A stretch of DNA of 64,000 nt from Eubacterium sp. (GTDB taxonomy: Bacteria > Bacillota > Clostridia > Lachnospirales > Lachnospiraceae), in the NCBI GenBank assembly GCA_017541035.1, contig JAFXZW010000023.1:116-64115 (forward strand). The letters run 5' to 3'. Position numbers and translations under genes: made by a program. Positions 1,139 through 57,541 of this stretch are shown here, in pieces (position 1 is the first letter of the stretch; every line of letters starts with the position of its first letter). The notes below the pieces were generated by a model that was not told the origin of the DNA, made no database searches, and was given only the letters and a program-made list of their open reading frames with translations.

Positions 1139-1170
1139 GCATCGGACTTTTTTGTCCGGTGCTTTTTTTT
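1139..1170 (+). terminator. Intrinsic terminator of the tRNA cluster
   Basis: GCATCGGAC/GTCCGGTGC stem followed by T8. Confidence 0.8.
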
Positions 1171-1218: not shown

Positions 1219-1302
1219 TTTTTTCGTGGAAAAGAGCAGCAGATAATGGTAAAATAAAACATAACTGTCGGGAATTCTGTGTTCCGTGGAAAGGAGCAGA
1301 AA

Positions 1303-4892: not shown

Positions 4893-7726
4893 AGAACAGG
4901 AATGAGCATATGATGGAAAAGGGTAATTTGACCGGACTGATCGAGTTGGAGACACGGATCAGTCATGCGGAAATGGAAGCCGGGAAGACGGCTGATAAGG
5001 CTGTTTCGGAGATGGAGTCCAATATCATCCGGGTTACCATTAACGGTAAGGAATACACGGCCGAGAGAGGAAAGAAGATACTTAATTTCTGTCGGGAGGC
5101 AGGTATTGAGATTCCTTCACTGTGTCATTTGAAGGATTACAGCGATATCGGTTCCTGCCGTCTTTGCATGGTGGAGATCGAAGGCTATGGAAGCAGGCTT
5201 TTTGCGGCATGCCGGACAAAGCTGGAGGATGGTATGGTAATTACCACCGAGTCCGAGAAGCTGACGGAGTATCGGAAGGAAATGCTCCGGCTTCTTCTGT
5301 CCAACCATACGGTGGATTGTATGAACTGCCCGAAGAATGGCGGCTGTCAGCTTCAGGAGATGTGCAACCGGTATGAGATCAAGGATACGCCCTATGCCGG
5401 ATCCCGTCGGAAGATAGAAGGAAAGCTTCCGAAGCTGGCGGATAATCCGTACATTTCCTATGATCCCAGTAAGTGCATCCATTGTCAGCGCTGTGTCAGT
5501 GCCTGCAATAGAGCTGCCGTAAATCATACAATGAAAAACGGAAGAACAGGTGTATTTCACATGGTGGATGCACCCTTCGGACCGGACTGGAGAGAGAGCG
5601 GCTGCGAGAGCTGCGGAAACTGTGCCGCAGCATGCCCCACAGGTGCATTGGTGCTCAAGAGAAAAGAAAAATATCATGAGTGGTCAACCAAAAAGGTTCT
5701 TACAACCTGTCCGCATTGCGCGACCGGATGTCAGTTCTACCTGCTGGTAAAGGATAATCAGATCGTGGATGTGGAGCCGGCGGATGGACCTTCGAACCAC
5801 GGACTGCTCTGTGTCAAGGGCCGGAGCGGTAGTTTTGATTTTGTTAATTCTCCCGACCGGATCCGGACTCCGCTCATCAAGAATAAAGAGACCGGTGAAT
5901 TCGAACCGGCTTCCTGGGATGAAGCGATCTCTTATGTGGCAAAGCGTTTTATGGAGCTGAAGGAGAAGTACGGCGGGGATGCTCTGGCCGGCTTTGCCTG
6001 CTCCCGTTCTGCCAATGAAGACATTTACATGGTACAGAAGATGGTTCGTACCTGCTTTGGCACAAATAATACGGACAACTGTGCCCGCGTCTGCCATTCC
6101 GCAACTGTTGCGGGTCTGGCAAAGACCCTGGGCTCCGGTGCCATGACGAACCCGATCTACGACATCACCCATGATGTGGACTGCATCATGCTGGTGGGTT
6201 CGAACCCTGAGGAAGCGCATCCTGTGGTAGGTATGCAGATCCGGCAGGCGGTTGAGCGCGGAACGCGTCTGATCGTGGTTGATCCCCGGACCATCGGGCT
6301 GGCGGAGAAGGCGGACATTCACCTGAAGCTTCGGCCGGGTACAAATGTTGCCTTTGCCAACGGCATGATGCATGTGATGATCAAGGAAGACCTGATCGAT
6401 CATGATTATATCGAAAAGTTCACAGAAGATTTCGACAAGCTGAAGGAGCTGGTGAAGGATTATACGCCGGAGAAGGTGGGTGAGATCTGCCATATCGATC
6501 CGGATAAGCTGGTAGAGGCGGCAAGAATGTACGCCACAGCGAAAAAGGCCCCCATCATTTACTGTCTGGGTGTGACCGAGCATTCTACCGGTACCGAGGG
6601 TGTTATGAGCATGTCCAATATGGCTCTGCTTTGTGGTAAGGTTGGTCGCAGCGGCTGTGGTGTGAATCCTCTGCGCGGGCAGAATAATGTGCAGGGAGCC
6701 TGTGATATGGGTGCCCAGCCCACGGATTATCCGGGCTATCAGAAGGTGGACAATCCGGAGGTAAGGGAGAAATTCGAGCTGGCCTGGGGCGTTCGTCTGA
6801 ATCCCAAGCCGGGTCTCAAGGCAACGGATGTTTTCCCGGCAGCGATCGAAGGGAAGATCAAGGGTCTCTATATCTGCGGCGAGGATCCGGTTGTAACGGA
6901 TCCGGACAGCGAGCATATCAAGCATGCCCTGCAGAGTCTGGATTTCTTCGTACTTCAGGAGCTCTTTATGACGGAAACCGCCAAATATGCGGATGTGATC
7001 CTTCCGGGACGCAGCTTTGCCGAGAAGGAAGGCACATTTACAAATACCGAACGCCGGGTACAGAGGATCCGGACTGCCGTAACCGTGGAGGGTGACATGC
7101 GTCTCGATACGGATATCATCATCGATCTCATGAATGCCATGGGTTATCCGCAGGAATACCTGACCGCTTCACAGATCATGGATGAGATAGCATCCGTTAC
7201 CCCCAGTTTTGCGGGGATCAACTTTACGCGTCTGGATGCAGGCGAATCTCTTCAGTGGCCCTGCCGTGACAGAAATACGATCGGCACCCCCATTATGCAT
7301 GTGGGCAAGCCGGTGCGCGGCCGTGCGCTTCTATATCCTGCGGAATACAAGCCGTCACAGGAGCTCCCGGATGAATCCTATCCGTATGTACTGACCACGG
7401 GGCGTATCCTGTACCAGTATAATGCGGCTGCCATGACCTCCCGTGCACCGGGACTTATGGAGATTGCCGGAGAAGGCTTTATCGAGGTGAATTACAAGGA
7501 TGCAGACCGCCTTGGAATTAAGAACGGTGAGAGAATCCGTGTCAGCAGCCGGCGCGGCTGCATTACCGCAACCGCAAGGGTAGGCAGGAAGGTGTCTGAG
7601 GGTGAGACCTGGATGCCCTTCCATTTCCCGGATTCCCCCGTGAATATGCTTACGAATGCGGCATTGGATGATTTCGCCCGGATTCCGGAATACAAGGTTT
7701 GCGCGGTCAATATTGAAAAAATGTAG
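4880..7726 (+). CDS. fdhF: Formate dehydrogenase alpha subunit (Cys form, cytoplasmic); true start may lie downstream
   Basis: N-terminal 2Fe-2S, His-ligated 4Fe-4S and 2x4Fe-4S motifs; CPHCATGC; CARVCH active site; LRGQNNVQGACD; no Tat signal. Confidence 0.93.
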   Translation: MRMVENRNEHMMEKGNLTGLIELETRISHAEMEAGKTADKAVSEMESNIIRVTINGKEYTAERGKKILNFCREAGIEIPSLCHLKDYSDIGSCRLCMVEIEGYGSRLFAACRTKLEDGMVITTESEKLTEYRKEMLRLLLSNHTVDCMNCPKNGGCQLQEMCNRYEIKDTPYAGSRRKIEGKLPKLADNPYISYDPSKCIHCQRCVSACNRAAVNHTMKNGRTGVFHMVDAPFGPDWRESGCESCGNCAAACPTGALVLKRKEKYHEWSTKKVLTTCPHCATGCQFYLLVKDNQIVDVEPADGPSNHGLLCVKGRSGSFDFVNSPDRIRTPLIKNKETGEFEPASWDEAISYVAKRFMELKEKYGGDALAGFACSRSANEDIYMVQKMVRTCFGTNNTDNCARVCHSATVAGLAKTLGSGAMTNPIYDITHDVDCIMLVGSNPEEAHPVVGMQIRQAVERGTRLIVVDPRTIGLAEKADIHLKLRPGTNVAFANGMMHVMIKEDLIDHDYIEKFTEDFDKLKELVKDYTPEKVGEICHIDPDKLVEAARMYATAKKAPIIYCLGVTEHSTGTEGVMSMSNMALLCGKVGRSGCGVNPLRGQNNVQGACDMGAQPTDYPGYQKVDNPEVREKFELAWGVRLNPKPGLKATDVFPAAIEGKIKGLYICGEDPVVTDPDSEHIKHALQSLDFFVLQELFMTETAKYADVILPGRSFAEKEGTFTNTERRVQRIRTAVTVEGDMRLDTDIIIDLMNAMGYPQEYLTASQIMDEIASVTPSFAGINFTRLDAGESLQWPCRDRNTIGTPIMHVGKPVRGRALLYPAEYKPSQELPDESYPYVLTTGRILYQYNAAAMTSRAPGLMEIAGEGFIEVNYKDADRLGIKNGERIRVSSRRGCITATARVGRKVSEGETWMPFHFPDSPVNMLTNAALDDFARIPEYKVCAVNIEKM

Positions 7727-7773
7727 ATGTTTATACGGGACTCCGGAATCATTTGCGTGATTGCTGAGAGTGC

Positions 7774-7811
7774 AAAAGGCGGTACGGTGACACTTCACTG
7801 TGCCGCTTTTT
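7774..7811 (+). terminator. Intrinsic terminator after fdhF
   Basis: 12-bp stem GCGGTACGGTGA/TCACTGTGCCGC (2 G-U pairs) followed by T5. Confidence 0.75.
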
Positions 7812-7883
7812 CCCCTATTCGAAATATAGGGGTTTAGCCGGTTTTTGGATAATGTGAAAAGAATTGTTGAAGGGAAGAACACT

Positions 7884-9146
7884 ATGGAGCTGGAAGAAGC
7901 TTTGGAAAAATACCTGTCGGAAGCTGAACCCATACAGGATGTGGAAAGAGTACCGCTCTTTGAAGCCTTTGGAAGGATCATAGCCGAAGAGATCAGAGCA
8001 CCCTTTGCTGTGCCGCATTTTCCGAAGGCTGCCATGGACGGATATGCCGTGCGGGCGGAGGATGTGCAAAATGCCTCACCGGAAAAGCCGGTAATCCTTA
8101 CGGTTGTTGGAGAAATCCTGGCAGGTCAGGAGGAGCCGGTGCTTTATCGTTTCTCCGGTTCAGATATGTCGGAAAGATCTGCGGGATGCAGAGGAACCGC
8201 CATTCGCATCATGACAGGAGCTTTGGTACCCGAGGGTTATGATGCCGTTGTGCGTCAGGAGGATACGGATTACGGGGAGAGGGAGGTACAGATCTGCAAA
8301 GGAGTCCTTTCCTACACCAATTACTGCAAAGCAGGAGAGGATATCGCGGAAGGCGCTGCGGTTCTCCCAAAAGGAAGAAGGATCGGGCGGATCGAAGCAG
8401 GCATGCTTGCCAGCCTGGGTTTTTTTGAGGTACCGGTTCTCCGGAGACTGCGGATATCCGTGATCTCTACGGGAACGGAACTGTGGGAGGTTTCCGAAAC
8501 GGCTTCCCTAAGCTCCGGCGGAGTTCAGCCGCCCCGGGGAAGGATCTACAACAGCATAGCCTTCACTCTTTCGGGGAGTCTGAAAGCAGCAGGTTTTACG
8601 GTGGACTGCAGTGTGGTACCGGATGAGGCGGATGAGATCGCCCGATGCCTGGAGCAGGCGCTGATTACCTCCGATATTGTGATCACCACGGGAGGAGTTT
8701 CTGTCGGAAAGAAGGATCTGCTTCCCGAAGTACTGGACAGGATCGGTGCAAAGAAGGTTTTTGCCCGGATCAACATCCAACCGGGAACCCCCACCATCGG
8801 AAGTGTGAAGGGTGGGAAAGCCATTTTAAGCCTATCCGGAAACCCCTTTGCGGCGTTGGTGAATTTTGATCTGTATTTTTATCCCTTAGCCGCTAAGCTG
8901 ACCGGATGTTCTTCACTGCTGCCTGTAATCGAAGAGGCTATACTGCAAAGCGAATATCCGAAGGTTAATCATCATCGGCGCTTTCTTCGGGCAAGGGTTG
9001 AAAATGGATTGGTCTATCTCCCGGCAAAAAGCCATGCATCTTCCGTACTTGCCAATCTGCTGGAATGTAACTGTTATATCGATCTTCCTTCAGAGAAGAA
9101 GGTAAAGCCCGGAGACAGGGTTCGGATCGTCCGTATGCCGGTCTGA
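7884..9146 (+). CDS. moeA: Molybdopterin molybdotransferase MoeA
   Basis: PHFPKAAMDGYAV, IMTGA.VP, STGTEL, TTGGVSVGKKD, LSGNP motifs. Confidence 0.92.
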   Translation: MELEEALEKYLSEAEPIQDVERVPLFEAFGRIIAEEIRAPFAVPHFPKAAMDGYAVRAEDVQNASPEKPVILTVVGEILAGQEEPVLYRFSGSDMSERSAGCRGTAIRIMTGALVPEGYDAVVRQEDTDYGEREVQICKGVLSYTNYCKAGEDIAEGAAVLPKGRRIGRIEAGMLASLGFFEVPVLRRLRISVISTGTELWEVSETASLSSGGVQPPRGRIYNSIAFTLSGSLKAAGFTVDCSVVPDEADEIARCLEQALITSDIVITTGGVSVGKKDLLPEVLDRIGAKKVFARINIQPGTPTIGSVKGGKAILSLSGNPFAALVNFDLYFYPLAAKLTGCSSLLPVIEEAILQSEYPKVNHHRRFLRARVENGLVYLPAKSHASSVLANLLECNCYIDLPSEKKVKPGDRVRIVRMPV

Positions 9147-9150
9147 CGGA

Positions 9151-9266
9151 TCACAATGCCCGGATCATCGGAATATACGGTCTCACAATGTCCGGATTAT
9201 CGGAGTATACCGGTCTCACAATGTCCGGATTATCGGAATATACGGTCTTACAATGTCCGGATTATC
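9151..9266. repeat. 32-33-bp tandem repeat x3.6
   Basis: Units TCACAATGTCCGGATTATCGGAATATACGGTC at 9151, 9183, 9216 and partial at 9248. Confidence 0.9.
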
Positions 9267-9322
9267 TGTATATGCCGGGCCTGTGAGAGTGGTCTCTTAA
9301 TGACTACCATAGGCGGCATGAC

Positions 9323-9351
9323 TTGTCAGTATATCGTGAAAATGATACAAT
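9323..9351 (+). promoter_or_regulatory. Sigma-A-type promoter for mobA-mobB
   Basis: TTGTCA, 17 bp, TGa-TACAAT. Confidence 0.7.
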
Positions 9352-9441
9352 GTCTTACATAGTTCGGAGGATATGGTTCTGTATAACGGACTGAAACGTG
9401 ACGGGAAACAGTGCCGAAGAGAGGGATTTCGGAGAGGAATC

Positions 9442-10587
9442 ATGAAACATACAAAGCACCCTGCATATTCCGTGGGCATACTGGCCGGCGGAAAGAGCAC
9501 CCGCATGGGGCAGAATAAAGCTCTGATGGAATTTCAGAATGAAACCATGATCGGCAGGATCTCAAGGGAGTTTCGAGGCTTCGGAGAGGTTCTTGTTTCT
9601 GCGTCTCAAAGGGGAATTTATGAAGCTGAGGGGCTGCGGGTGGTTTATGACGAAGCGGACAGCATCGGGCCGATCGAAGGAATCCGCCAGCTGATCAGCA
9701 ATGCCGGAGAGGAATACATTTTTATCTGTGCCGCCGATATGCCTTTTGTTAATCGTGAGATCGCGGAGTATCTGGCGGAATTTTTATCGTCGGATTTTGA
9801 TTGCTTTGTGATTACGGATGAAGAGCATGTTCATCCGTTATGCGCCATTTATTCCAAACGGGTGCTCCCCGTGGTCGAGGAGTTGATCCGGGAGAAGAAA
9901 TACCGGCTGGTGGAGATACTGAACCGTGTGCGGACCAAATATGTCAGTCTGACGCATACGAATTTCGACCGCCGGATTGTAAAGAATGTCAATACAAAGG
10001 ACGAGTTTCTGGCACTGAGTCTGCCGGTTATTTTTGCTGTGTCCGGTTATCATAACAGCGGAAAGACAGGTCTCATCGAAAAGCTGATCAATGAGTTTAT
10101 CCGGGAGGGATATACGGTCGGTGTGCTGAAGCATGACGGACAGGATCATATCGATGAGGCAGAAGGAACGGATACGGCGCGGCTGCGGAAGGCCGGAGCG
10201 ATGTGCACAGCTGTGGTTTCCGACACAAGGTGCATTTTTGATGTGCAGTTTGTGAAGGTCGGTGGAGAAGCAGCCGGTTCCGGAGAAGCCGGGGAGGAGT
10301 TACGGCAAAAAATGTCGGATGTGCGGAGTCCGGAGACTCTGATCCGGCAGATGAAAGATCTACCGGAACCCCCTTCTGTTATTATCCTGGAGGGCTTTAA
10401 GAATTCGGTTTATCCGAAGATCGAGGTCGTCCGACGGGAAGTTTTTCCCGAAAGTGTCGCGGATCCTGACACCCTGATCTGTATCGTTACCGACTGTATA
10501 TCCCCTGAGAAAGTATCCTGTCCCGTATTCGGGTCGGATGATATCCGGGGGATTTTTTCATGCCTGCGGGAGAGGTTTTCAATCTGA
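9442..10587 (+). CDS. mobA: MobA-MobB fusion (Moco guanylyltransferase plus MobB P-loop domain)
   Basis: LAGGKSTRMGQNK and ICAADMPF (MobA); SGYHNSGKTGLIEKL, LKHDG, ILEGFK (MobB). Confidence 0.88.
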   Translation: MKHTKHPAYSVGILAGGKSTRMGQNKALMEFQNETMIGRISREFRGFGEVLVSASQRGIYEAEGLRVVYDEADSIGPIEGIRQLISNAGEEYIFICAADMPFVNREIAEYLAEFLSSDFDCFVITDEEHVHPLCAIYSKRVLPVVEELIREKKYRLVEILNRVRTKYVSLTHTNFDRRIVKNVNTKDEFLALSLPVIFAVSGYHNSGKTGLIEKLINEFIREGYTVGVLKHDGQDHIDEAEGTDTARLRKAGAMCTAVVSDTRCIFDVQFVKVGGEAAGSGEAGEELRQKMSDVRSPETLIRQMKDLPEPPSVIILEGFKNSVYPKIEVVRREVFPESVADPDTLICIVTDCISPEKVSCPVFGSDDIRGIFSCLRERFSI

Positions 10588-10591
10588 ACGG

Positions 10592-10667
10592 TATGATGCT
10601 GGGGTCAAAGGGTATTTTGCCTTGATGATTCGCAGCACGCACACTACGTGTGCAATGTGCTGCGAGA
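10592..10667 (-). repeat. Dispersed repeat family B, copy 2
   Basis: Reverse complement matches 62472-62540 apart from a short internal indel and a few substitutions; internal hairpin GCACACTACGTGTGC. Confidence 0.85.
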
Positions 10668-10750
10668 TCCCTATCATCATAATATTCATAAAAGAAAACA
10701 GGTTCAGGATTATGTGTAAAAATGGAAATGAATCGAAAGGTTTACATAAT

Positions 10751-11836
10751 ATGAAACTGATCAATACAGAAGAAGCAATCGGACATGTACTGTGCCATGA
10801 CATTACCAGAATCATTCCGGGTGAGGAGAAGGGGCCGGTCTTTCGGAAGGGACATATTGTAACCCGGGAGGATATCCCGGTGCTGCTGTCTGTGGGAAAG
10901 GAGCATCTCTACGTGTGGGAGAAGACGGAAGGAATGCTGCATGAAGATGAAGCAGCTGAAATCCTGCGGGAGATCTGCATGGGGGAAGATACATCCATGA
11001 CTGCATCCGCGCCTTCGGAGGGTAAGATCGAGATCCGCGCAGCACGGGACGGACTTCTTAAGATCGACAGGGAGAAGCTGCTCCGGGTCAACAGCCTTGG
11101 GGAAATGATGATCGCCAGTATTCACGGAGACCAGCCTGTGGGTGCAGGTGCAAAGCTGGCCGGGACCCGCGTGATCCCACTGGTGATCGAAAAGGAGAAA
11201 ATGGAACGGGCAAAGGAAGCGGCCGGAGGGTCGCCGATCTTCTCGATCCTTCCTTTTTCGCACATCCGCTACGGTCTGGTTACTACGGGAAATGAGGTGG
11301 CAGCCGGCCGGATCCGGGATGCCTTTGGTCCGGTGTTGAAGAAGAAAATGGCGGAATACGATACGGAATGTCTGGGGCAGGTGATCCTGCCGGATGATAA
11401 GGAAGCCATTACGAAAGCAATCCTGAAGTTTGTCCGGGAAGGCGCTGATCTGGTGCTTTGCAGCGGTGGTATGAGCGTGGATCCGGATGATAAGACCCCG
11501 GGAGCGATCCGGGATACGGGTGCCGAGGTAGTTAGCTACGGAGCGCCTGTACTTCCGGGAGCCATGTTTCTGCTGGCTTACCTGAAGACGGAAGCGGCTT
11601 TGGGAGATAATCTTCCAGCGGAAGCGGTTTTGGGATCAGAGCGTGTTCACACGGTTCCCGTGCTGGGGATTCCTGGCTGCGTCATGTATGCAAAACGCAC
11701 GGTATTTGATCTGGTGCTGCCCCGTATTCTTGCCGGAGAGCATCTAACCGCAGCGGATCTGGCACGTTATGGGGAAGGCGGTCTGTGTCTGAACTGTGAG
11801 GTATGCCATTTCCCAAACTGCAGTTTCGGGAAGTGA
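10751..11836 (+). CDS. MoeA-like molybdopterin-binding protein with C-terminal Cx2Cx2Cx4C motif
   Basis: AIGHVLCHDIT N-terminus; TTGNEV..G...D, CSGGMSVDPDD, PGAMF; ends CLNCEVCHFPNC. Confidence 0.82.
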   Translation: MKLINTEEAIGHVLCHDITRIIPGEEKGPVFRKGHIVTREDIPVLLSVGKEHLYVWEKTEGMLHEDEAAEILREICMGEDTSMTASAPSEGKIEIRAARDGLLKIDREKLLRVNSLGEMMIASIHGDQPVGAGAKLAGTRVIPLVIEKEKMERAKEAAGGSPIFSILPFSHIRYGLVTTGNEVAAGRIRDAFGPVLKKKMAEYDTECLGQVILPDDKEAITKAILKFVREGADLVLCSGGMSVDPDDKTPGAIRDTGAEVVSYGAPVLPGAMFLLAYLKTEAALGDNLPAEAVLGSERVHTVPVLGIPGCVMYAKRTVFDLVLPRILAGEHLTAADLARYGEGGLCLNCEVCHFPNCSFGK

Positions 11837-11962
11837 TCCCATAACAGGCCGTGAAGGGTAATTTAACCAAAAGCACTGGAAGATGATCTGTCAGGCCGGG
11901 GAGCAATTTACCGAAAGCACCGGACCGAAAGATAGAGAGTGCTGTGACCGAAAGCAAAGGGA

Positions 11963-11991
11963 TGTCAGGGAGCGTAGCGACCGAAGGATCT
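11963..11991 (+). repeat. Degenerate GTCAT-type REP-like element (family A)
   Basis: TGTCAGGGAGCGTAGCGACCGAAGGATCT resembles the left half of 50827-50903. Confidence 0.45.
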
Positions 11992-12027
11992 ACCGGATGC
12001 AAAAGGGTTACGAAGAAAGGAACAGTC

Positions 12028-12507
12028 ATGAACCAGCTTTCACATATCAATGACAAGGGTGAAGCCACCATGGTGGACGTAACGGCAAAGGATGAAACCC
12101 TCAGGTACGCAAGAGCAACCGGCCGGATCCACGTTGGAGCAGCGGTCCTGCAGGCCGTTGAGGAAGGCTCTGTTGCAAAGGGAGATGTATTCGGAACAGC
12201 CAGAATCGCCGGAATCATGGCAGCAAAGAAAACGCCGGATCTGATTCCGCTCTGCCATGGGCTGTTGTTAACAAAGATAGCAGTGGATTTTACTGTATGC
12301 CCTGAAACCTCCGATATTCTCTGCACCGGAGAAGTGCGTCTTACCGGAAAGACCGGTGCGGAAATGGAGGCCCTCACGGCTGTCAGTGTGGCGCTGCTTA
12401 CGATTTACGATATGTGCAAGGCCATTGATAAGGAGATGGTTATTTCCGATATCCGTCTGGAGGAGAAGGACGGCGGAAAAACTGGACATTTTCAGAGAAC
12501 CAGGTAA
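12028..12507 (+). CDS. moaC: Cyclic pyranopterin monophosphate synthase
   Basis: LSH...[40 protein letters not shown]. Confidence 0.95.
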
Positions 12508-12516
12508 AAAAGGAAA

Positions 12517-13347
12517 ATGAATAAGATGAAAAAAATATTAAGCACGCTGCTCTGTCTGGGAATACTCTTTTGCCTTGTTGCCTGCGGAGACAGGAAGGAG
12601 GAGGGTACGACAGCGGCATCCACAACGGAAGAAGGAAACGTAAATGAAGAGCAGGCAACGCTCCTTGTCATGGCTGCGGCTTCCCTTACAGATGTCTGCA
12701 CGGAATTAACGCTGAAGTATAACATCACGCATCCGAATGTTCAGCTGATGTTTCATTTTGCCGGTTCCGGCGCACTGCAGACACAGATCGAAGCCGGTGC
12801 GGATGCGGACATTTTCATTTCGGCCGCACAGAAGCAGATGAATGCTCTGAAGGACCAGAAACTCATGAAAGAGGATACGATCGTTGACCTTCTTGAGAAT
12901 AAGGTTGTTCTGATCGTGCCGAAGAACAGTACGCTGGGTCTTACGGGTTTTGCGGATGTGAAGAAGGAAAATGTGAAGCTCGTGGGCATCGGCGAGGTGG
13001 AAAGCGTTCCCGCCGGGCAATATGCAAAGGAGATTTTCACAAATCTCGGCTGTTGGGATGAGATTGAGAAAAAGGCTAATTTCGGTACGGACGTGCGGAC
13101 CGTGCTGGGATGGGTGGAGACATCAAATGTGGATTGCGGCGTCGTTTATGCAACCGATGCCAAATCCAGTGAAAATGTGAAGGTTGTAGCGGAGGCCCCG
13201 GAAGGATCCTGTAAACCGGTGATTTATCCTGCGGGGGTGATCGCATCCTCCAAAAATCAGAAAGCTGCAGAGGAATTTCTTCATTTTCTGAAGAGCGACG
13301 AAGCAAAGCAGATTTTTGAGAAGCACGGTTTTTCCCTTGCAAAATAA
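12517..13347 (+). CDS. modA: Molybdate ABC transporter substrate-binding lipoprotein
   Basis: Lipobox LVAC; AAASL; GSGALQTQIEAGADADIFISA; VYATDA. Confidence 0.93.
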   Translation: MNKMKKILSTLLCLGILFCLVACGDRKEEGTTAASTTEEGNVNEEQATLLVMAAASLTDVCTELTLKYNITHPNVQLMFHFAGSGALQTQIEAGADADIFISAAQKQMNALKDQKLMKEDTIVDLLENKVVLIVPKNSTLGLTGFADVKKENVKLVGIGEVESVPAGQYAKEIFTNLGCWDEIEKKANFGTDVRTVLGWVETSNVDCGVVYATDAKSSENVKVVAEAPEGSCKPVIYPAGVIASSKNQKAAEEFLHFLKSDEAKQIFEKHGFSLAK

Positions 13348-13426
13348 AGTGAGAATGTAAAGGCTTGATAGGATAATGATTTTATCTGACGGATGATCGC
13401 ATCGCCTGACGGAAGAGGAAAGTGAT

Positions 13427-14110
13427 ATGGACCTTTCACCTTTATGGATATCCTTAAAAATAGCCCTGATCGCAACGGGGATCACATTTCTTTTAGGCCT
13501 TCCCGCGGCCTGGGGTGTAACGCATCTTGGAAGAGGGAAGCACATCGTGGACGGGATCCTTTCCATTCCGTTGGTGCTTCCTCCCACGGTGGTGGGTTTT
13601 CTATTGCTGATTCTGTTCGGACAGAGCTCCGCCTTCGGGCGTTTTCTGCAATCCATCGGCATCAACGTGATCTTCACCTGGCAGGGTGCGGTGATCGCCG
13701 CAGTGGTGGTATCCTTCCCTGTCATGTACCGGGGAATGAGAGGCGCTATCGAACAGGTGGATGAGAATCTGATTCACGCTGCGCGGACACTGGGGATGCG
13801 GGAGTTTACGATCCTGCGCCGCGTAATCCTTCCCTCCGCCTGGCCGGGGGTGGCAGCGGCGGCGGTGCTGTCCTTTGCCCGTGCCCTGGGCGAATTCGGC
13901 GCCACCATTATGATCGCCGGAAATCTTCCGGGGAAGACGCAGACCATGTCGGTTGCCGTGTACACAGCCATGCAGGGAGGCAACCGCGGGCTGGCACTGA
14001 AGTGGGTGCTTATCATCGTCACCTTTTCGCTGATCATACTGATTCTGATGAATTACTGTACCGCCGCAGGCTTCCGGAGGAGAAGAAATGCAACTTACGG
14101 TAGACATTGA
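13427..14110 (+). CDS. modB: Molybdate ABC transporter permease
   Basis: LPPTVVGF, EAA-like loop, FARALGEFGAT. Confidence 0.93.
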   Translation: MDLSPLWISLKIALIATGITFLLGLPAAWGVTHLGRGKHIVDGILSIPLVLPPTVVGFLLLILFGQSSAFGRFLQSIGINVIFTWQGAVIAAVVVSFPVMYRGMRGAIEQVDENLIHAARTLGMREFTILRRVILPSAWPGVAAAAVLSFARALGEFGATIMIAGNLPGKTQTMSVAVYTAMQGGNRGLALKWVLIIVTFSLIILILMNYCTAAGFRRRRNATYGRH

Positions 14111-15233
14111 AAAAAAAGTCGGAGCCTTCTGTCTGCATACAGCATTTGATGTGGATATGGAGCGACTGGCTTTGCTGGGAGCTTCCGGCTGCGGAAAAAG
14201 TATGACGTTAAAATGCATCGCCGGAATCGAGAAACCGGATCGGGGCAGGATCATCCTCGGAGACCGGGTGCTTTTTGATGCGGAAAAAAAGATCTGTCTT
14301 CCGGCCAGGGAAAGAAGGGTAGGTTACCTTTTCCAGGACTACGCTCTTTTTCCGAACATGACGGTACGTAAAAATGTGACCTGTGCCGCCAAGGATCCTG
14401 CTTATGCAGAGGAACTGCTGGAGCGTTTCGGTATCCGGGAGGTGGCGGAGCAGTATCCTGCGGAGCTTTCCGGAGGGCAGAGTCAGAGAACGGCTTTGGC
14501 ACGCATGCTGGCGGCTAAGCCTGAGGTATTGCTAATGGATGAACCCTTTTCGGCACTGGATAATTATATGCGAACCCGTATGGAGCATGAGATCCTGGAT
14601 ATCATGAAGGATTTTACAGGTCCGGTGATCCTGGTTACCCATGACCGGAACGAAGCGTACCGGCTGGCAGAACGGATCGGAGTGATGGAGGCCGGCAGGC
14701 TGGCGGAGCTGCAGGAGAGAAAGGAATTCTTTGATCATCCCAGAACAGTAGCGGCTGCCCGGCTCACGGGCTGTAAGAACATTTCCCGTCTGGTCGGGAG
14801 AGGGGACGGAAGCTTTTTTGCCGAGGACTGGGGAATATCGGTGGCGGAACCCGGGGGATGCAGCCTGAAGGGCGTTCCTTATGTGGGCTTTCGGGCGCAC
14901 TATTTCCGGTGGGCAGACGAGAGGATGCGGAAGGATTCCGGAAATTCAGCAGGCCAGACACCGGAACGCACATCCGGAGCAGAAAACGAAGAGAAGTATG
15001 TATCGGGAAATGCAGCAGGCCAGGTGATCTCCTGCCGGCTGCAGCGAGTAATCGAGGATACCTTCTCCGTGGTGGTCTGCTTTACCGCTGAGGGAAATAC
15101 CTCTGAATCACCGGATGCCCTGCTTACCTGGGTGGTGGATAAGACACACTGGGAAAATGTGAGGGAACAGGTGTTGACGGGACATTTCTACCTGCAGCCC
15201 GATCCCGGAAAGTTGATGCTGTTGGAGGGCTGA
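14088..15233 (+). CDS. modC: Molybdate ABC transporter ATPase
   Basis: GASGCGKS Walker A, LSGGQ signature, LLMDEPFSALD. Confidence 0.9.
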   Translation: MQLTVDIEKKVGAFCLHTAFDVDMERLALLGASGCGKSMTLKCIAGIEKPDRGRIILGDRVLFDAEKKICLPARERRVGYLFQDYALFPNMTVRKNVTCAAKDPAYAEELLERFGIREVAEQYPAELSGGQSQRTALARMLAAKPEVLLMDEPFSALDNYMRTRMEHEILDIMKDFTGPVILVTHDRNEAYRLAERIGVMEAGRLAELQERKEFFDHPRTVAAARLTGCKNISRLVGRGDGSFFAEDWGISVAEPGGCSLKGVPYVGFRAHYFRWADERMRKDSGNSAGQTPERTSGAENEEKYVSGNAAGQVISCRLQRVIEDTFSVVVCFTAEGNTSESPDALLTWVVDKTHWENVREQVLTGHFYLQPDPGKLMLLEG

Positions 15234-15308
15234 GACAGGTCCGGGGAAGTGGTTGAAATGATAAATCCTCAGAATATAACCATGTGTCATTGTGAACAGG
15301 AGACGAAA

Positions 15309-16313
15309 ATGACTGAACTTGTGGATGCTTACGGAAGAAAGGTGGATTATCTCAGAATCTCTCTGACGGACCGTTGCAATCTCCGTTGCAGGTACTGCAT
15401 GCCGAAGGAGGGAATCGGCGGGATCGGACATGAGAGGATCCTCACATTGGAGGAAATCCTCCGGGTGGCGCGTATCCTTACGGAGATGGGAGTCCGGCGT
15501 ATCCGGATCACAGGAGGCGAACCGCTGGTGCGCAGGAATGTACTGTATCTCATCCGCCAGCTGGGTACGCTCCCGGGGCAGCCGGAGCTGACTCTGACCA
15601 CTAATGGAGTGTTGCTGGAGGAGGTACTTCCGGAGATCCTTGCAGCGGGACTGCACAGCATTAATATCAGTCTCGATACCCTGGACCGGGAGGTTTACCG
15701 GGAGCTTACCGGGACGGATGCGCTGGAACGCGTGCTCCGCGGAATGGAGAAGGCGCTGGAAATGGGTATGCAGGTCAAGTTGAATACCGTTCCCATCCGC
15801 GGAATCAATGAGAAGGAACTGACAGTGCTGGCCGGTCTGGCACGGGACAGAGGAATCGCGGTCCGATTTATCGAGCTGATGCCCATAGGCTGCGCGAAGG
15901 ATTTAAGAGGCATCCCGGGAGAAGAGATCCTGCATATTCTGGAAGACGAATACGGCTCTGCCGAACCGGAGGGAGGAACTCCCGGAGTATCGGAACTGCA
16001 AAAGGAAGCCAGGGGGCCGGCACGGTATTATCATTTCAGAGGCTTTCAGGGAAATGTGGGATTCATTGATCCCCTTTCTCACAGCTTCTGCAGCAGCTGT
16101 AACCGTGTACGCCTTACATCGGATGGCCGTCTGAAGCTGTGCCTATATTATCCGGAGGGGCCGGATCTGCGGGAAATGCTTCGGGGAGGCTGCAGCGATG
16201 AGGAGCTGAAGCAGGCAATCACACGGGAACTGATCTACAAGCCGGAATGTCACAGCTTTATCAACCCGTCAGAGGGAAAAGATTCAAGAAATATGAACGA
16301 GATCGGAGGATAG
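15309..16313 (+). CDS. moaA: GTP 3',8-cyclase (radical SAM)
   Basis: CNLRCRYC; C-terminal CSSCNRVRLT...LC; ends IGG. Confidence 0.95.
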   Translation: MTELVDAYGRKVDYLRISLTDRCNLRCRYCMPKEGIGGIGHERILTLEEILRVARILTEMGVRRIRITGGEPLVRRNVLYLIRQLGTLPGQPELTLTTNGVLLEEVLPEILAAGLHSINISLDTLDREVYRELTGTDALERVLRGMEKALEMGMQVKLNTVPIRGINEKELTVLAGLARDRGIAVRFIELMPIGCAKDLRGIPGEEILHILEDEYGSAEPEGGTPGVSELQKEARGPARYYHFRGFQGNVGFIDPLSHSFCSSCNRVRLTSDGRLKLCLYYPEGPDLREMLRGGCSDEELKQAITRELIYKPECHSFINPSEGKDSRNMNEIGG

Positions 16314-16316
16314 AAA

Positions 16317-17249
16317 ATGGGTCGGGTACGCGCGGTCTGCATCAGTGAGAAAAAGGGAACCCCGAAGAGGGATATCGGAAGAAGCCTTTTGATTAAGGAT
16401 TTCGGGCTTGAAAAGGATGCCCATGCGGGAAGTCCGCGGCAGGTCAGTATGCTTGCGGCGGAGGAGGTGGAGGCATTCCGTGAGCGTTCAAAGGGAGAAC
16501 TGCCCCCCGGTATCTTCGGTGAAAATCTGCTTGTGGAGGGGTTTGATCTCGCCAAATGTCCCGTGGGCACGCAGTTTCGGATCGGAGATGTACTTCTTCG
16601 CCTGACACAGATCGGAAAGCAGTGCCACAGCGGCTGTGTGATCATGCAGAAAACGGGGGAATGCATCATGCCCCGGCAGGGTGTATTTGCCGAGGTACTG
16701 CAGGGGGGCGTTGTGACCTCAGGTGACAGGATCCTGCGCCTTCCGCCGGAGCAGCGGGAGCAGGGATCGCCCTTCCGCGCGGTTATTCTTACCGCCAGTG
16801 ACCGTTCCTTCCGGGGAGAGAGAAAGGATCAAAGCGGTCCGAAGATCGCAGAGCTTCTTTCTGCCGCGAAATACGAGATAGTGGGTACGGAGCTTCTCCC
16901 CGATGATGAAGAAGGCCTCATCAATGTGATGACGGAGATCTGTGATATCGAACGGCCGGATGTTCTCTTTACCACAGGAGGAACTGGTTTTTCACCCCGT
17001 GACCGGATGCCGGAAGCTACCCGGAGGATTGCGGAACGGGATGTCCCTGGCATTGCTGAAGGAATCCGGGCCTACAGTCTTACCATTACCCCCCGGGCCA
17101 TGCTGTCCCGCGCCGTCAGTGTAATCCGTGGTGGTACGCTCATTGTCAATCTCCCGGGGAGTCCGAAGGCAGTTGAAGAATGCCTTACCTATCTGATGCC
17201 TGTTCTTGAACATGGTCTCGGCATTCTCCGGGGAGAAGCGGACGAATAG
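16317..17249 (+). CDS. MOSC domain fused to MogA/MoaB molybdopterin adenylyltransferase
   Basis: FGENL and IGKQCHSGC (MOSC); TTGGTGFSPRD and NLPGSPKAV (MogA). Confidence 0.87.
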   Translation: MGRVRAVCISEKKGTPKRDIGRSLLIKDFGLEKDAHAGSPRQVSMLAAEEVEAFRERSKGELPPGIFGENLLVEGFDLAKCPVGTQFRIGDVLLRLTQIGKQCHSGCVIMQKTGECIMPRQGVFAEVLQGGVVTSGDRILRLPPEQREQGSPFRAVILTASDRSFRGERKDQSGPKIAELLSAAKYEIVGTELLPDDEEGLINVMTEICDIERPDVLFTTGGTGFSPRDRMPEATRRIAERDVPGIAEGIRAYSLTITPRAMLSRAVSVIRGGTLIVNLPGSPKAVEECLTYLMPVLEHGLGILRGEADE

Positions 17250-17285
17250 AGACAGAAGTTTTCAATGTTATAATTGTGAAAAGGA

Positions 17286-17315
17286 TTGTCACTCATTACT
17301 CTGATGTGATACAAT
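17286..17315 (+). promoter_or_regulatory. Putative sigma-A promoter for the GGDEF-EAL gene
   Basis: TTGTCA, 18 bp, TGa-TACAAT; same hexamers as the mobA promoter. Confidence 0.55.
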
Positions 17316-17374
17316 GTAATAGACTATAAGGGCAACAGAAAAACTCATTTTGTATAATTGTTTTGGGGAAGTAC

Positions 17375-19054
17375 ATGGGTGTCAGCCATAAACAATATGT
17401 TGCATATCTTACAGAACTGATCCTCCTCACGCATAGTGAAGAATATGACCGTGAGGCTTATTTGGTGTGGGTAAAAAGTGTCTGCCGGGATTACCGGATC
17501 GCCAAGGCGGTTACGGAATTCTATCCGACCCCTATGATGCGGCGGAATGGGCAGGGGGAGATCTTCTGTGATGTCGATAACGGAAAAGGCGTGAAGATCC
17601 TGTTAAGGATCGAACTCATGACCAAAACAAAGTCTACCATTATCGGAACCCTTTATACAGAGGAGGAGGACGAGGAAAGAACAGAGGAGGAGAAGAAGCA
17701 ACTGGATATCTTTCTCCGTCTGATCATCGGTTTCGTAGCCCGGCGGCGTCTGATTCGCACGCTGCAGGAATTTGGCTTTGAGGATGAAACCGGTTTCCCA
17801 AATTACCGTGCCTTATCCCGTTACCTTGACATTGCCAATGTGGAAAATACTTTGGGCGGAAAAGTCGCCTTTCATATGGATCTGCATAATTTCACCATGG
17901 TCAATCAGGAGATCGGCCGGAAGAACGGTGATATTGTCATGCGTACATTTTTTAATATGGTTAAGGATGTCATTGGCGATACAGGGATTCTGATCCGGCT
18001 GGGTGGAGACAAGTTTGTGGGTATCTTTGACCGGAAGGTAAAGAGACAGGTATTTGAGCTCCTGTCCGGAACCTTGGTTCCCTATGACAAAGCAGAGGAT
18101 AAGAAGATTCTGGTTCAGGCGGCTGTCGGTGTGTACATGCTTCCGAATCCTTTTACGATGAATGTTTACGGGGACATCATGGATAAGATCATGATGGCAA
18201 GTATGGCGGCAAAGCAGCAGACGGAGGGCACCATCGTCATTTATGATGACCGGATGAAGAATGAGCGGAATCGCACGAAGAAGGTTCAGACTGATTTCCG
18301 GAGTGCACTGGTAAATGAGGAATTTCAGGTCTATTATCAGCCAAAGGTAGATATTGAGACACGAAAGCTCAGCGGAGCGGAAGCACTCTGTCGCTGGCTG
18401 AAAAATGGAAAGATTGTTCCTCCGCTGGATTTTATTCCGATCCTTGAGATCAATACGGATATCTGCGATCTGGACTTTTATATGCTGGACCATGTGTGCC
18501 GTCATATCCGACGTTGGCTGGATGAGGGACGGGATGTGGTGCGGATCTCGGTGAATTTCTCCCGGAAGCATTTGATGGATGTGGATCTTCTGGAACATAT
18601 CCTGGAGGTGGTCGATCGAAACAAGGTTCCGCATGAATATATCGAAATCGAGCTGACGGAGACCACAACAGATGTTCAGTTCCGCGACCTGAAACGGATC
18701 GTAAGCGGCTTGCAGGAGCAGGGAATCTGGACCGCAGTCGATGATTTCGGTATGGGTTATTCGTCCCTGAACCTGATCCGCGATATCCCGTGGAATGTGC
18801 TAAAGGTGGATAAGAATTTTGTTCCCAAGAACGCGGAGGATACAGGCAATATTACAAATGTGATGTTCCGGCATGTGATCTCTCTGGCTCAGGACATAGG
18901 GCTGGAGTGCGTGATCGAAGGAGTGGAGACCGTAGACCAGCTGGAGGTCTTAAGAGAGAATAACTGTAATATCGTGCAGGGTTATTTCTTCGACCGCCCG
19001 CTTCCTTTGGAAGAGTTTGAGCAAAGACTGGATGAGAAGTACTATCCGGAATAG
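17375..19054 (+). CDS. GGDEF(variant)-EAL protein
   Basis: RLGGDKF; EAL; DDFGMGYSSL; EGVET. Confidence 0.9.
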   Translation: MGVSHKQYVAYLTELILLTHSEEYDREAYLVWVKSVCRDYRIAKAVTEFYPTPMMRRNGQGEIFCDVDNGKGVKILLRIELMTKTKSTIIGTLYTEEEDEERTEEEKKQLDIFLRLIIGFVARRRLIRTLQEFGFEDETGFPNYRALSRYLDIANVENTLGGKVAFHMDLHNFTMVNQEIGRKNGDIVMRTFFNMVKDVIGDTGILIRLGGDKFVGIFDRKVKRQVFELLSGTLVPYDKAEDKKILVQAAVGVYMLPNPFTMNVYGDIMDKIMMASMAAKQQTEGTIVIYDDRMKNERNRTKKVQTDFRSALVNEEFQVYYQPKVDIETRKLSGAEALCRWLKNGKIVPPLDFIPILEINTDICDLDFYMLDHVCRHIRRWLDEGRDVVRISVNFSRKHLMDVDLLEHILEVVDRNKVPHEYIEIELTETTTDVQFRDLKRIVSGLQEQGIWTAVDDFGMGYSSLNLIRDIPWNVLKVDKNFVPKNAEDTGNITNVMFRHVISLAQDIGLECVIEGVETVDQLEVLRENNCNIVQGYFFDRPLPLEEFEQRLDEKYYPE

Positions 19055-19077
19055 AAACAGAATCATTTGAGAATCCA

Positions 19078-19104
19078 GAAAAGCCCCGGCCACCGGGGCT
19101 TTTC
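19078..19104. terminator. Intrinsic terminator (symmetric)
   Basis: Perfect 12-bp stem GAAAAGCCCCGG/CCGGGGCTTTTC. Confidence 0.85.
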
Positions 19105-19128
19105 TTAAATAAGCGATTACAATTCTCC

Positions 19129-19157
19129 TTGTGTTAATGGAAAACTGGTGCTATAAT
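19129..19157 (+). promoter_or_regulatory. Putative promoter of nfnAB
   Basis: TTGTGT, 17 bp, TGc-TATAAT. Confidence 0.6.
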
Positions 19158-19285
19158 TTGGAAGACTTTGACATTTTTGCCCTTACCCATAGAGGCAAAT
19201 TATCAGAAAATCCGGCACGTTTATCATTTATATGCCATGAAACTACAGGCTTTGTGCGGGATCATCATCAGAAAGCAGGGAGTAT

Positions 19286-20125
19286 ATGTATAAGATCATT
19301 CAAAAAAAATCGCTTAATCCCACAGTTACGCTGATGGAGGTTGAGGCCCCCCTTGTTGCCCGGAAATGTGAACCGGGTCAGTTTATCATTCTGCGCGCAA
19401 AGGAAGACAGTGAGCGGATTCCCCTTACCATTGCAGGCTATGACAGGGCGAAGGGAACCATTACCATTATCTTCCAGATCGTCGGCGGAAGTACCGAGAT
19501 CCTGAATTCCCTTTCGGAGGGTGATTCTATTCAGGATTTTGTAGGGCCGCTGGGAAAGGCTACAGAGACCGAGGGTCTGAAGAAGGTTGCGGTCGTCGGC
19601 GGCGGCGTGGGATGTGCCATTGCCTATCCGGTGGCAAAGAAGCTGCATGATATCGGCTGCGAAGTACATTCCATCGTCGGTTTCCGGAGTGAGGATCTGA
19701 TCATTCTGGAGGATGAGTTCCGGGCAGCCAGTGACAGATATGTACTGATGACGGACGACGGATCCAAGGGTGAGAAGGGACTTGTCACAGCGGCGCTGGA
19801 GAAGCTGATCACGGATGGTGAGCAGTACGACCAGGTGATCGCCATCGGACCGCTGATCATGATGAAATTTGTGGTTGCCGTGACAAAGAAATACAATGTG
19901 AAAACGGTTGTCAGCATGAATCCCATCATGGTTGACGGTACAGGTATGTGCGGCGGCTGCCGGCTTACCGTGGGTGGCAAGACGAGATTTGCCTGCGTGG
20001 ACGGACCGGATTTTGACGGCTTTGAAGTGGATTTTGATGAGGCTATGGCGAGAGGCGCTTCCTATCGTCCTTTCGAGCAGAAGGCCAGAGAAGAAGCCTG
20101 CAACCTTCTTAAACTGAAGCCATAA
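19286..20125 (+). CDS. nfnA: Electron-bifurcating transhydrogenase small subunit (FAD, 2Fe-2S)
   Basis: PGQFIILR...ERIPLTI, GGGVG, DGTGMCGGC...CVDGP; paired with a GltD-like gene. Confidence 0.88.
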   Translation: MYKIIQKKSLNPTVTLMEVEAPLVARKCEPGQFIILRAKEDSERIPLTIAGYDRAKGTITIIFQIVGGSTEILNSLSEGDSIQDFVGPLGKATETEGLKKVAVVGGGVGCAIAYPVAKKLHDIGCEVHSIVGFRSEDLIILEDEFRAASDRYVLMTDDGSKGEKGLVTAALEKLITDGEQYDQVIAIGPLIMMKFVVAVTKKYNVKTVVSMNPIMVDGTGMCGGCRLTVGGKTRFACVDGPDFDGFEVDFDEAMARGASYRPFEQKAREEACNLLKLKP

Positions 20126-20265
20126 AGAACCGTCGGACATGTCTCGTATGACAGCTGACAAAACAGTACTTATGCAGGACGATACCATGCATCAAAGGGC
20201 GCGAGGCGCCGGGAGATGCGGTAGGGAGTTAATGAAATAATTCAGATATAGAGGAGTAACAAGAA

Positions 20266-21648
20266 ATGCCCAACATGTCCATGGTTAAGAACCCCATGCC
20301 CACTCAGGAGCCGGAGGTTCGGAATAAGAATTTTAATGAGGTTGCCCTTGGTTATACCGAGGAACAGGCCATTGATGAGGCAAAGCGCTGTCTCAACTGC
20401 AAGCATAAGCCCTGCACAGGAGGCTGTCCGGTTCAGATCGACATTCCGGCCTTCATAGCCCGTGTAGCGGAAGGTGATTTTGAGGGAGCTTATGAGATCA
20501 TCACCCGTTCCAGCTCGCTGCCTGCGATCTGCGGTCGTGTATGTCCTCAGGAGTCCCAGTGTGAGAAATACTGCGTTCGCGGTATTAAAGGCGAACCCGT
20601 TGCCATCGGACGTTTGGAGCGTTTTGTGGCTGATTGGCACATGGCCAACAGCAAGGAAGCTCCGGTAAAGCCCGAACCCAACGGACATAAGGTAGCCGTG
20701 ATCGGCTCCGGTCCCTCCGGTCTTGCGTGCGCAGGCGATCTGGCAAAAAAAGGCTATGACGTGACCATTTATGAGGCTCTTCATGTAGCCGGCGGCGTAC
20801 TGGCTTACGGTATTCCCGAGTTCCGTCTTCCCAAGGCTATCGTTCAGAAGGAAATCGACGGATTGAAGGCGCTGGGCGTTAAGGTTGAAACAAATGTGGT
20901 GATCGGCAAGACCATTTCCATCGATGAGCTCTTCGATGAATTCGGCTATGAATCCGTATTTATCGGCTCCGGTGCCGGTCTGCCCCGTTTTATGAATATC
21001 CCCGGAGAGAATCTGAACGGTGTTTATTCCGCGAATGAGTTTTTGACCCGGATCAATCTGATGAAGGCATACAGGGATGATTCCAAGACTCCCATCAAGC
21101 ACCCGCAGAGTACGGTGGTAGTGGGAGGAGGAAATGTGGCTATGGACGCAGCCCGTTCGGCTAAGCGCCTTGGCTCTGACGTGACTATCGTTTACCGAAG
21201 GACCAAGGCGGAGCTACCCGCCCGTGCGGAAGAGGTGGAGCATGCAGAGGAGGAGGGCATCAAGTTCGCTTTCCTGCATAATCCCGTAGAGGTTTTGGGG
21301 GAGAACGGATGGGTATCGGCTGTAAAATGTCAGGTTATGGAGCTTTCCGATCCGGATGAGTCCGGGCGCAGAAAGCCGGTGCCGGTGGAAGGACAGTTCA
21401 TTACCGTTCCCTGTGACTGCATGATCATGTCTATCGGAACGTCCCCCAACCCGCTGATCAAGTCCACTACCGAGGGCCTGGAGACGCAGAAGTGGGGTGG
21501 TATCGTTGCGGATGAAAAAACAGGACTTACCTCCCGCAAGAGTGTATATGCCGGCGGCGATGCCGTTACCGGAGCTGCTACAGTTATTCTGGCCATGGGT
21601 GCGGGAAAGGCAGCGGCAGCAGGCATTGACGCAGAGCTGATGGGATGA
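20266..21648 (+). CDS. nfnB: Transhydrogenase large subunit (GltD-like, NADPH)
   Basis: RCLNC...CPV, CGRVCPQESQCE, GGGNVAMDAAR, YRR; no glutamate synthase large subunit nearby. Confidence 0.88.
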   Translation: MPNMSMVKNPMPTQEPEVRNKNFNEVALGYTEEQAIDEAKRCLNCKHKPCTGGCPVQIDIPAFIARVAEGDFEGAYEIITRSSSLPAICGRVCPQESQCEKYCVRGIKGEPVAIGRLERFVADWHMANSKEAPVKPEPNGHKVAVIGSGPSGLACAGDLAKKGYDVTIYEALHVAGGVLAYGIPEFRLPKAIVQKEIDGLKALGVKVETNVVIGKTISIDELFDEFGYESVFIGSGAGLPRFMNIPGENLNGVYSANEFLTRINLMKAYRDDSKTPIKHPQSTVVVGGGNVAMDAARSAKRLGSDVTIVYRRTKAELPARAEEVEHAEEEGIKFAFLHNPVEVLGENGWVSAVKCQVMELSDPDESGRRKPVPVEGQFITVPCDCMIMSIGTSPNPLIKSTTEGLETQKWGGIVADEKTGLTSRKSVYAGGDAVTGAATVILAMGAGKAAAAGIDAELMG

Positions 21649-57540: not shown

Positions 57541-57541
57541 A

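Follow-up and report, generated by a model that had tools for sequence, protein, structure and literature searches.

A minimal MOSC domain fused to MogA as a candidate for the missing molybdopterin synthase step in a formate dehydrogenase maturation operon of a rumen Lachnospiraceae bacterium

The window analyzed here, a 64-kb stretch of contig JAFXZW010000023.1, carries an operon for formate dehydrogenase (FDH) maturation from an uncultured rumen Lachnospiraceae bacterium; among named organisms, its nearest relatives are metagenome-assembled genomes (MAGs) from the rumen labelled "Eubacterium sp." or Lachnospiraceae. The operon encodes all canonical steps in the synthesis of bis-molybdopterin guanine dinucleotide, a form of the molybdenum cofactor (Moco), except the conversion of cyclic pyranopterin monophosphate (cPMP) to molybdopterin (MPT). 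Its last gene encodes a MOSC domain fused to MogA, and the part that this MOSC domain may play at the missing step is the subject of this analysis.

The operon is a single array of plus-strand genes (window positions 3054-17249), in which the FDH genes are followed by the Moco genes:

3054-4892, plus strand: NAD(P)-binding Fe-S flavoprotein subunit of FDH, with a NuoF C-terminal 4Fe-4S region and a GltD-like region (Pfam NADH_4Fe-4S, Fer4_20, and Pyr_redox_2; NCBIfam PRK12771, 554 bits)
4880-7726, plus strand: FdhA, the catalytic subunit with a Mo/W-bis-pyranopterin guanine dinucleotide cofactor, and so the client of the pathway (TIGR01591, 837 bits against a cut-off of 666)
7884-9146, plus strand: canonical MoeA, molybdopterin molybdotransferase, 420 amino acids (Pfam MoeA_N, MoCF_biosynth, and MoeA_C)
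9373-10587, plus strand: MobA-MobB fusion, for attachment of guanosine monophosphate (GMP) and bis-molybdopterin guanine dinucleotide formation (Pfam NTP_transf_3 and MobB; NCBIfam PRK14489, 196 bits)
10751-11836 (called start 10712), plus strand: MoeA-like four-cysteine (4-Cys) protein (Pfam MoCF_biosynth only)
11944-12507, plus strand: MoaC, cPMP synthase (Pfam MoaC, 188 bits; NCBIfam NF006870, 229 bits)
12526-13347, plus strand: ModA of the molybdate ABC importer (Pfam set for ModABC: SBP_bac_11, BPD_transp_1, and ABC_tran)
13427-14110, plus strand: ModB of the molybdate ABC importer
14088-15233, plus strand: ModC of the molybdate ABC importer
15282-16313, plus strand: MoaA, the radical SAM GTP 3',8-cyclase (TIGR02666, 355 bits against a cut-off of 284; Pfam Radical_SAM and Mob_synth_C)
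16317-17249, plus strand: MOSC::MogA fusion (Pfam MOSC, residues 33-139, and MoCF_biosynth for MogA, residues 157-299)

Pfam scans covered all open reading frames (ORFs) taken as genes over the 64 kb, and curated scores came from NCBIfam. An earlier note on this DNA had placed the named Moco genes beside their client FDH, and each of them was recovered where that note had put it, with strong family scores. FdhA has the Pfam domains Fer2_4, NADH-G_4Fe-4S_3, Molybdop_Fe4S4, Molybdopterin, and Molydop_binding, and its active-site motif, ARVC405H406SATV, identifies a Cys-type enzyme in which the Cys-His pair is present. The gene for the NuoF/GltD-like subunit lies 5' of the FdhA gene in relatives too. 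Genes encoding GGDEF-EAL proteins bracket the array (1279-3057 and 17375-19054). A Moco riboswitch was sought in window positions 1-20000, and none was found.

The gap between moeA and mobAB has features of its own. Most of it is occupied by a 32-bp tandem repeat (9151-9273; 3.8 copies, 90% matches; unit TCACAATGTCCGGATTATCGGAATATACGGTC), and a promoter-like site lies 3' of the repeat, at 9323-9351. This stretch might serve as an array of operators or contain an internal promoter.

The earlier note had also reported that moaD, moaE, moeB, and fdhD are missing, a claim that both Pfam and phmmer bore out across the window, which is 64 kb of a metagenome scaffold and sets the scope of these statements. 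Pfam gave no match to ThiS/MoaD, MoaE (PF02391), ThiF/MoeB, or FdhD among the scanned ORFs. Escherichia coli MoaD, MoaE, and MoeB (from NC_000913.3), used as phmmer queries, found no match at E≤10 among six-frame window ORFs of at least 40 amino acids. As a control, the MoaE query finds Staphylococcus aureus, human, and archaeal MoaE in the PDB at E values of 1e-23 to 1e-12; phmmer picks up MoaD less readily than MoaE. An FdhD query from a relative had no match in the window either.

The same picture holds in related loci. The E. coli MoaE query found no match at E≤1 in the six-frame ORFs of 91 of them, and within 10 kb in about 100 related loci there was no MoaE, no MoaD-like protein ending in Gly-Gly, and no ThiF/MoeB. 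Nor did a conserved family of small ORFs ending in Gly-Gly emerge over 1.53 Mb of related loci.

Three possible hiding places for the missing proteins were considered and rejected. A 68-amino-acid ORF at 9156-9362, probably not a real gene, has no family match and no Gly-Gly end and overlies the 32-bp tandem repeat. The sole window ORF of 55 to 130 amino acids that ends in Gly-Gly (13444-13764) is an alternative frame within modB. Finally, the N-terminal 170 amino acids of the 4-Cys protein, considered as a hidden MoaE-like fold, are MoeA-like.

One explanation for these absences is that canonical moaD, moaE, and moeB lie at another locus, with the MOSC domain serving as an accessory module that binds Moco or MPT or handles sulfido groups. 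We regard this as a real possibility, albeit one that we are inclined to doubt. It fits the limited extent of the window, 64 kb of a metagenome scaffold, and in E. coli, where the comparable genes are moaABCDE and moeAB (NC_000913.3), moeB likewise sits at a separate locus. The behavior of fdhD also favors it: 28 of the 80 related loci have this gene directly 3' of MOSC::mogA, while the window has the GGDEF-EAL gene at 17375-19054 in that place, so a gene missing from the cluster need not be missing from the genome. On the other side, MoaE and MoaD are encoded in none of the 80 loci, although they normally adjoin MoaA and MoaC (Iyer et al. 2006).

The N-terminal part of the fusion protein is a clear MOSC domain (Pfam PF03473, 59.2 bits against a cut-off of 22.7), encoded at approximately 16317-16751. 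It is minimal, at about 140 residues, and Pfam shows no further domain besides the fusion partners. C103 aligns with the conserved Mo-binding cysteine of YiiM. Residues C8, H36, C103, C107, and C116 are invariant in 84 of 84 distinct sequences, and H104 is retained in 83. The alignment with YiiM does not extend to C8, and it pairs no YiiM cysteine with C107 or C116. Similarity to MOSC proteins of solved structure is very weak (E of about 0.06). The window domain thus shares the Pfam family and the conserved cysteine with the Moco sulfurase C-terminal domain, mARC, and YiiM/YcbX but differs in being minimal, in having three more invariant cysteines and two histidines, and in having biosynthetic fusion partners in place of NifS-like or reductase ones.

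By sequence and structural modeling, the C-terminal domain is predicted to be a textbook MogA/MoaB protein, i.e., an MPT adenylyltransferase. It scores 100.6 bits for Pfam MoCF_biosynth, and Foldseek aligns it at a template modeling (TM) score of 0.9 to Thermus thermophilus MoaB and to Cnx1G; sequence identity is 47% to T. thermophilus MoaB and 39 to 41% to Cnx1G and gephyrin G. The AlphaFold2 model of the whole fusion has a predicted local distance difference test (pLDDT) score of 87.7, and the top 50 Foldseek matches to it are all to the MogA domain.

The Pfam MOSC match and the weak similarity to YiiM, including the Mo-ligand cysteine, would also suit a quite different protein: a Moco-dependent reductase of N-hydroxylated compounds, akin to mARC, YiiM, and YcbX, in which the fused MogA supplies the enzyme's own cofactor and MOSC has no part in biosynthesis. 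Comparative genomics does count bacterial MOSC proteins as molybdoenzymes (Peng 2018). Nevertheless, we consider such a reductase very unlikely, given the minimal domain of about 140 residues, the three extra cysteines that YiiM does not match, and the nearly invariable linkage or fusion to enzymes of Moco biosynthesis, among them the early-acting MoaC.

How constant that linkage is can be seen from the distribution of the cluster. Homologues of the MOSC::MogA fusion form more than 7,900 clusters at 90% identity, and a search of 185,579 species genomes found at least 599 stretches that fit the pattern, of which at least 579 encode a relative of MOSC::MogA. Carriers occur among Lachnospiraceae, Oscillospiraceae (including Faecalibacterium prausnitzii), Enterocloster, Blautia, Pseudoflavonifractor, Aminipila, and rumen Treponema. 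Genes were counted in the 80 best loci, one per species genome and 1.29 Mb altogether, onto which the window proteins were mapped. MoaA is encoded in 75 of these, ModA in 67, MoaC in 65, the MoeA-like 4-Cys protein in 64, canonical MoeA in 36, FdhD in 28, and FdhA in 15; MoaE and MoaD are encoded in 0 of 80 each. The cluster is therefore a widespread type with a core of the MoeA-like 4-Cys protein, MoaC, MoaA, MOSC::MogA, and ModABC. In the window and the 80 species loci, moaA adjoins the MOSC gene with no clustered moaD or moaE. The same cluster type is present in an isolate assembly (GCA_000703065.1; JNLK01000001.1), on a contig of 3.86 Mb. Other carriers with complete or nearly complete genomes are F. 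prausnitzii UT1 (NZ_CP170812.1), Treponema sp. JC4 (AJGU01), Pseudoflavonifractor phocaeensis (JBCDMT01), Agathobaculum sp. Marseille-P7918, and Dehalobacter restrictus PER-K23.

Rumen Treponema (loci L024, L029, L030, L038, and L040) have the FDH-Moco cluster in full, with MOSC::MogA and the 4-Cys protein among its products, at 59 to 62% identity to the window protein. We take these copies to mean that the entire unit has passed horizontally between Lachnospiraceae and spirochaetes.

Fusions of the MOSC domain elsewhere bear on its function. The domain alone was compared with 1.84 billion representative proteins, giving 2,640 matches at E≤1e-3, and fusion partners were taken from the best 149. 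The most frequent partner in these 149 is MoCF_biosynth (31), followed by MoaC (8), XdhC (5), FdhD (2), ThiF (2), MobB (2), and MobA (1). No MoaE or ThiS partner appears among the matches listed, which represent 25 of the 30 matched families. The architectures include MoaC-MOSC, MOSC-MogA, MogA-MOSC, and the triple fusion MoaC-MOSC-MogA. The triple fusion, 463 to 520 amino acids long, is found in at least 17 protein clusters at 44 to 80% identity; some of the contigs exceed 300 kb, and the named carriers include MAGs labelled Planctomycetes. One compact locus (L099), beside a molybdenum hydroxylase of the xanthine dehydrogenase type, encodes MoaA, MoaC-MOSC-MogA, ModB, ModA, and the MoeA-like 4-Cys protein, again without MoaD or MoaE.

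In both gene order and fusion order, then, MOSC lies between MoaC, which makes cPMP, and MogA, which uses MPT, and no other in silico evidence speaks as strongly for its acting at the missing step. The order MoaC-MOSC-MogA argues against the accessory-module explanation. Other observations favor such a module. The canonical Mo-binding cysteine is kept in the domain, and there are the fusions to FdhD, XdhC, MobA, and MobB. The MOSC protein would then resemble the Moco sulfurase C-terminal domain or FdhD/XdhC and would stabilize, store, or sulfurate the FdhA cofactor. In the literature, Iyer et al. (2006) assign MOSC proteins to late steps, Peng (2018) classes them as Moco-dependent enzymes, and moaE and mosC coexist in Geobacter sulfurreducens (PMC2700814).

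Fusions of MOSC to a ThiF (MoeB-like) domain, 361 to 366 amino acids long, were found on short contigs (L095 and L096, the latter Logan SRR29026062). In L096, the fusion gene lies between a mogA gene and a candidate aldehyde:ferredoxin oxidoreductase ORF, which we take, from inspection by eye, to be the N terminus of such an enzyme. The placement of MOSC-ThiF next to mogA suggests cooperation with E1-type sulfur activation. Such an arrangement would fit a MOSC domain that replaces MoaE and not the whole system.

The second cysteine-rich protein of the operon is the MoeA-like 4-Cys protein. Its tail has the pattern C346-x2-C349-x2-C352-x4-C357 (CxxCxxCxxxxC) in the window protein, and all four cysteines are conserved in 66 of the 67 sequences compared. 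Homologues number more than 8,000, and NCBI gives them no name beyond "molybdopterin-binding protein." Pfam detects MoCF_biosynth alone, and neither MoeA_N nor MoeA_C. The AlphaFold2 model has a pLDDT of 85 overall and below 50 in the tail, which is disordered. Over the full length of the model, Foldseek ranks gephyrin E, Cnx1E, and E. coli MoeA highest (E values of 2.5e-9 to 1e-7, probability 1.0), at a TM score of only about 0.3. The protein also has a GGMSVDPDD motif, which we take to be MoeA-like. With MoeA, gephyrin E, and Cnx1E it shares MoCF_biosynth, whereas their domain IV is swapped for the CxxCxxCxxxxC tail. We read the 4-Cys protein as a putative Mo/W insertase paralog in which domain IV has been replaced by a metal- or Fe-S-binding tail.

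The earlier note had suggested that the MOSC domain and the 4-Cys protein could form a noncanonical dithiolene synthase; in a fuller version of this idea, the Cys4 tail would be a sulfur-donating Fe-S site. Both genes are present in 64 of the 80 loci and in clusters of a distant lineage, and the CxxCxxCxxxxC tail is invariant, all of which is in keeping with a joint synthase. Nevertheless, the full-length resemblance to MoeA, gephyrin E, and Cnx1E, together with the GGMSVDPDD motif, argues against it. Moreover, in 14 of 39 fully flanked loci the 4-Cys gene is the sole MoeA-type gene within 10 kb, so that it would be needed there as the insertase, and one lineage has otherwise identical FDH-Moco clusters without it. 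A joint synthase is, in our estimation, improbable, and the 4-Cys protein is unlikely as a sulfur inserter. The MOSC half of the idea fares better by context, given its constant MoaA, MoaC, and MogA partners, the 0 of 80 loci with MoaD or MoaE, the MoaC-MOSC-MogA fusions, and published genome gaps; the 4-Cys half is not supported, as this protein looks like a paralog of MoeA-type metal insertases.

One member of the 4-Cys family stands apart. P0210, a 506-amino-acid protein from an uncultured Oscillibacter, has an internal duplication that covers about 150 residues of the MoCF domain. The duplication could be an assembly artefact or real.

Gaps of the kind seen in the window have been described before, and several independent genome reports find MPT synthase missing or incomplete in MOSC-bearing anaerobes, which argues against a canonical synthase elsewhere. 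Work by Aklujkar et al. (2009; PMC2700814) noted that Geobacter metallireducens is without moaE and G. sulfurreducens is without moaD and moeB, that both have mobAB-moaA-mosC, and left unexplained how nitrate reductase functions with such gaps. Likewise, Tang et al. (2016; PMC4751268) found no moaD or moaE in Dehalobacter, reported MOSC proteins that are encoded in the Moco cluster and expressed, and proposed MOSC as a substitute for MPT synthase; they also noted the gene order moaC-MOSC-mog in Desulfitobacterium hafniense. In a study of 14 acetogens, MoaE was not reported (Shin et al. 2016; PMC5039349). An earlier prediction, by Anantharaman and Aravind (2002; cited in Iyer et al. 2006 and Tang et al. 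2016), was that MOSC domains are sulfur carriers. Both the missing-synthase gap and the idea of a MOSC substitute were thus already published, in 2009 and 2016, and the locus adds no new idea. A search of the available literature for experimental follow-up of the MOSC-substitute proposal found none.

Comparison with these systems brings out what is particular to the window. The E. coli MoaD/MoaE and MoeB system shares MoaA, MoaC, MogA, MoeA, MobA/B, and ModABC with it, whereas the window is without MoaE, a MoaD-like protein ending in Gly-Gly, and ThiF/MoeB. Dehalobacter and Desulfitobacterium, which we liken to it by their published description, have MOSC as one or two stand-alone genes, while in the window it is fused to MogA; the paper on them mentions no 4-Cys MoeA-like protein, and the window has one. 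Geobacter resembles the window in its adjacent MobA-MobB fusion, moaA, and mosC genes and in an incomplete MPT synthase, but it belongs to another phylum, and parts of the canonical synthase survive there.

Taken together, these observations lead us to propose that the MOSC domain performs or mediates the missing sulfur insertion that converts cPMP to MPT, a reading that we place just short of probable. At a minimum, the domain would substitute for the catalytic subunit MoaE. cPMP or MPT would be bound via the canonical MOSC pocket (Cys103), and the two dithiolene sulfurs would be delivered by C8, C107, and C116, acting as a persulfide relay or as an Fe-S/sulfide site. The sulfur might come from a ThiF-type system, a cysteine-desulfurase system, or free sulfide. 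MPT could then be handed directly to the fused MogA domain for adenylation, after which MoeA, the MoeA-like 4-Cys paralog, or both would insert Mo (or W), with molybdate supplied by ModABC. The MobA-MobB fusion would add GMP. Finally, an FdhD encoded elsewhere (its gene adjoins the cluster in many relatives) would sulfurate the cofactor and insert it into FdhA (Cys405).

Stated more broadly, and held more tentatively, there may be a MoaE-independent route to MPT in many strict anaerobes, with the dithiolene sulfurs inserted into cPMP by a minimal MOSC domain that has four invariant cysteines and is either fused to MoaC and MogA or encoded beside them. These would include Lachnospiraceae, Oscillospiraceae (Faecalibacterium among them), rumen Treponema, Peptococcaceae, Geobacter, and some MAGs labelled Planctomycetes.

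Several points weigh against assigning MOSC to this step. mARC, YiiM, and the Moco sulfurase C-terminal domain bind finished Moco via the same conserved cysteine, and none of them is known to act on cPMP. Fusion partners of the MOSC subfamily seen here also include FdhD, XdhC, MobA, and MobB, which act late in the pathway, and such fusions would fit a general Moco-binding or sulfido-handling module equally well. The MOSC-ThiF fusions suggest that MoaD-type chemistry persists in some carriers, and, as the case of fdhD shows, accessory genes can leave the cluster. The absence of moaD and moaE is an absence from the window and from the flanks of related loci. Also, G. sulfurreducens has both MoaE and mosC (PMC2700814), so the two are not strictly mutually exclusive. 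The placement of MOSC at the cPMP step, which comes from comparison and context, accordingly stays a possibility that does not quite reach the probable.

MPT synthase (MoaD/MoaE) is regarded as a universal step in Mo/W cofactor synthesis, from bacteria to humans. If the proposed MOSC role is true, this textbook step would have a second, unrelated (nonorthologous) solution in major anaerobes of the gut, the rumen, and the wider environment. Calls of pathway completeness for such anaerobes would be systematically wrong, and the function of the very large family of "MOSC domain-containing proteins" would be settled. Novelty is low for the idea of a MOSC substitute and moderate for the supporting survey, which sharpens the case through the MoaC-MOSC-MogA fusions, the 0 of 80 MoaE linkage, and the invariant cysteines.

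Other features of the window lie outside this pathway. Just 3' of the Moco cluster, at 19286-21648, are genes for a DHODB_Fe-S_bind protein (279 amino acids) and a GltD-like pyridine-nucleotide oxidoreductase (455 amino acids), a pair that we suspect forms a complex of the NfnAB or sulfide dehydrogenase type. Four cyclic-di-GMP proteins with PAS, GGDEF, or EAL domains are encoded in the 64 kb, at 1279-3057, 17375-19054, 43339-45144, and 62559-63893. Three tRNA genes (317-404, 746-817, and 1063-1133) lie 5' of the first GGDEF-EAL gene, and a strong terminator-like hairpin (1136-1165) follows the third of them. Toward the other end of the window, at 54841-61665, tandem GH94 phosphorylases (899 and 804 amino acids) precede a GH16 enzyme that has ricin-type lectin repeats, a combination that suggests a fiber specialist that degrades beta-glucan or cellodextrin.

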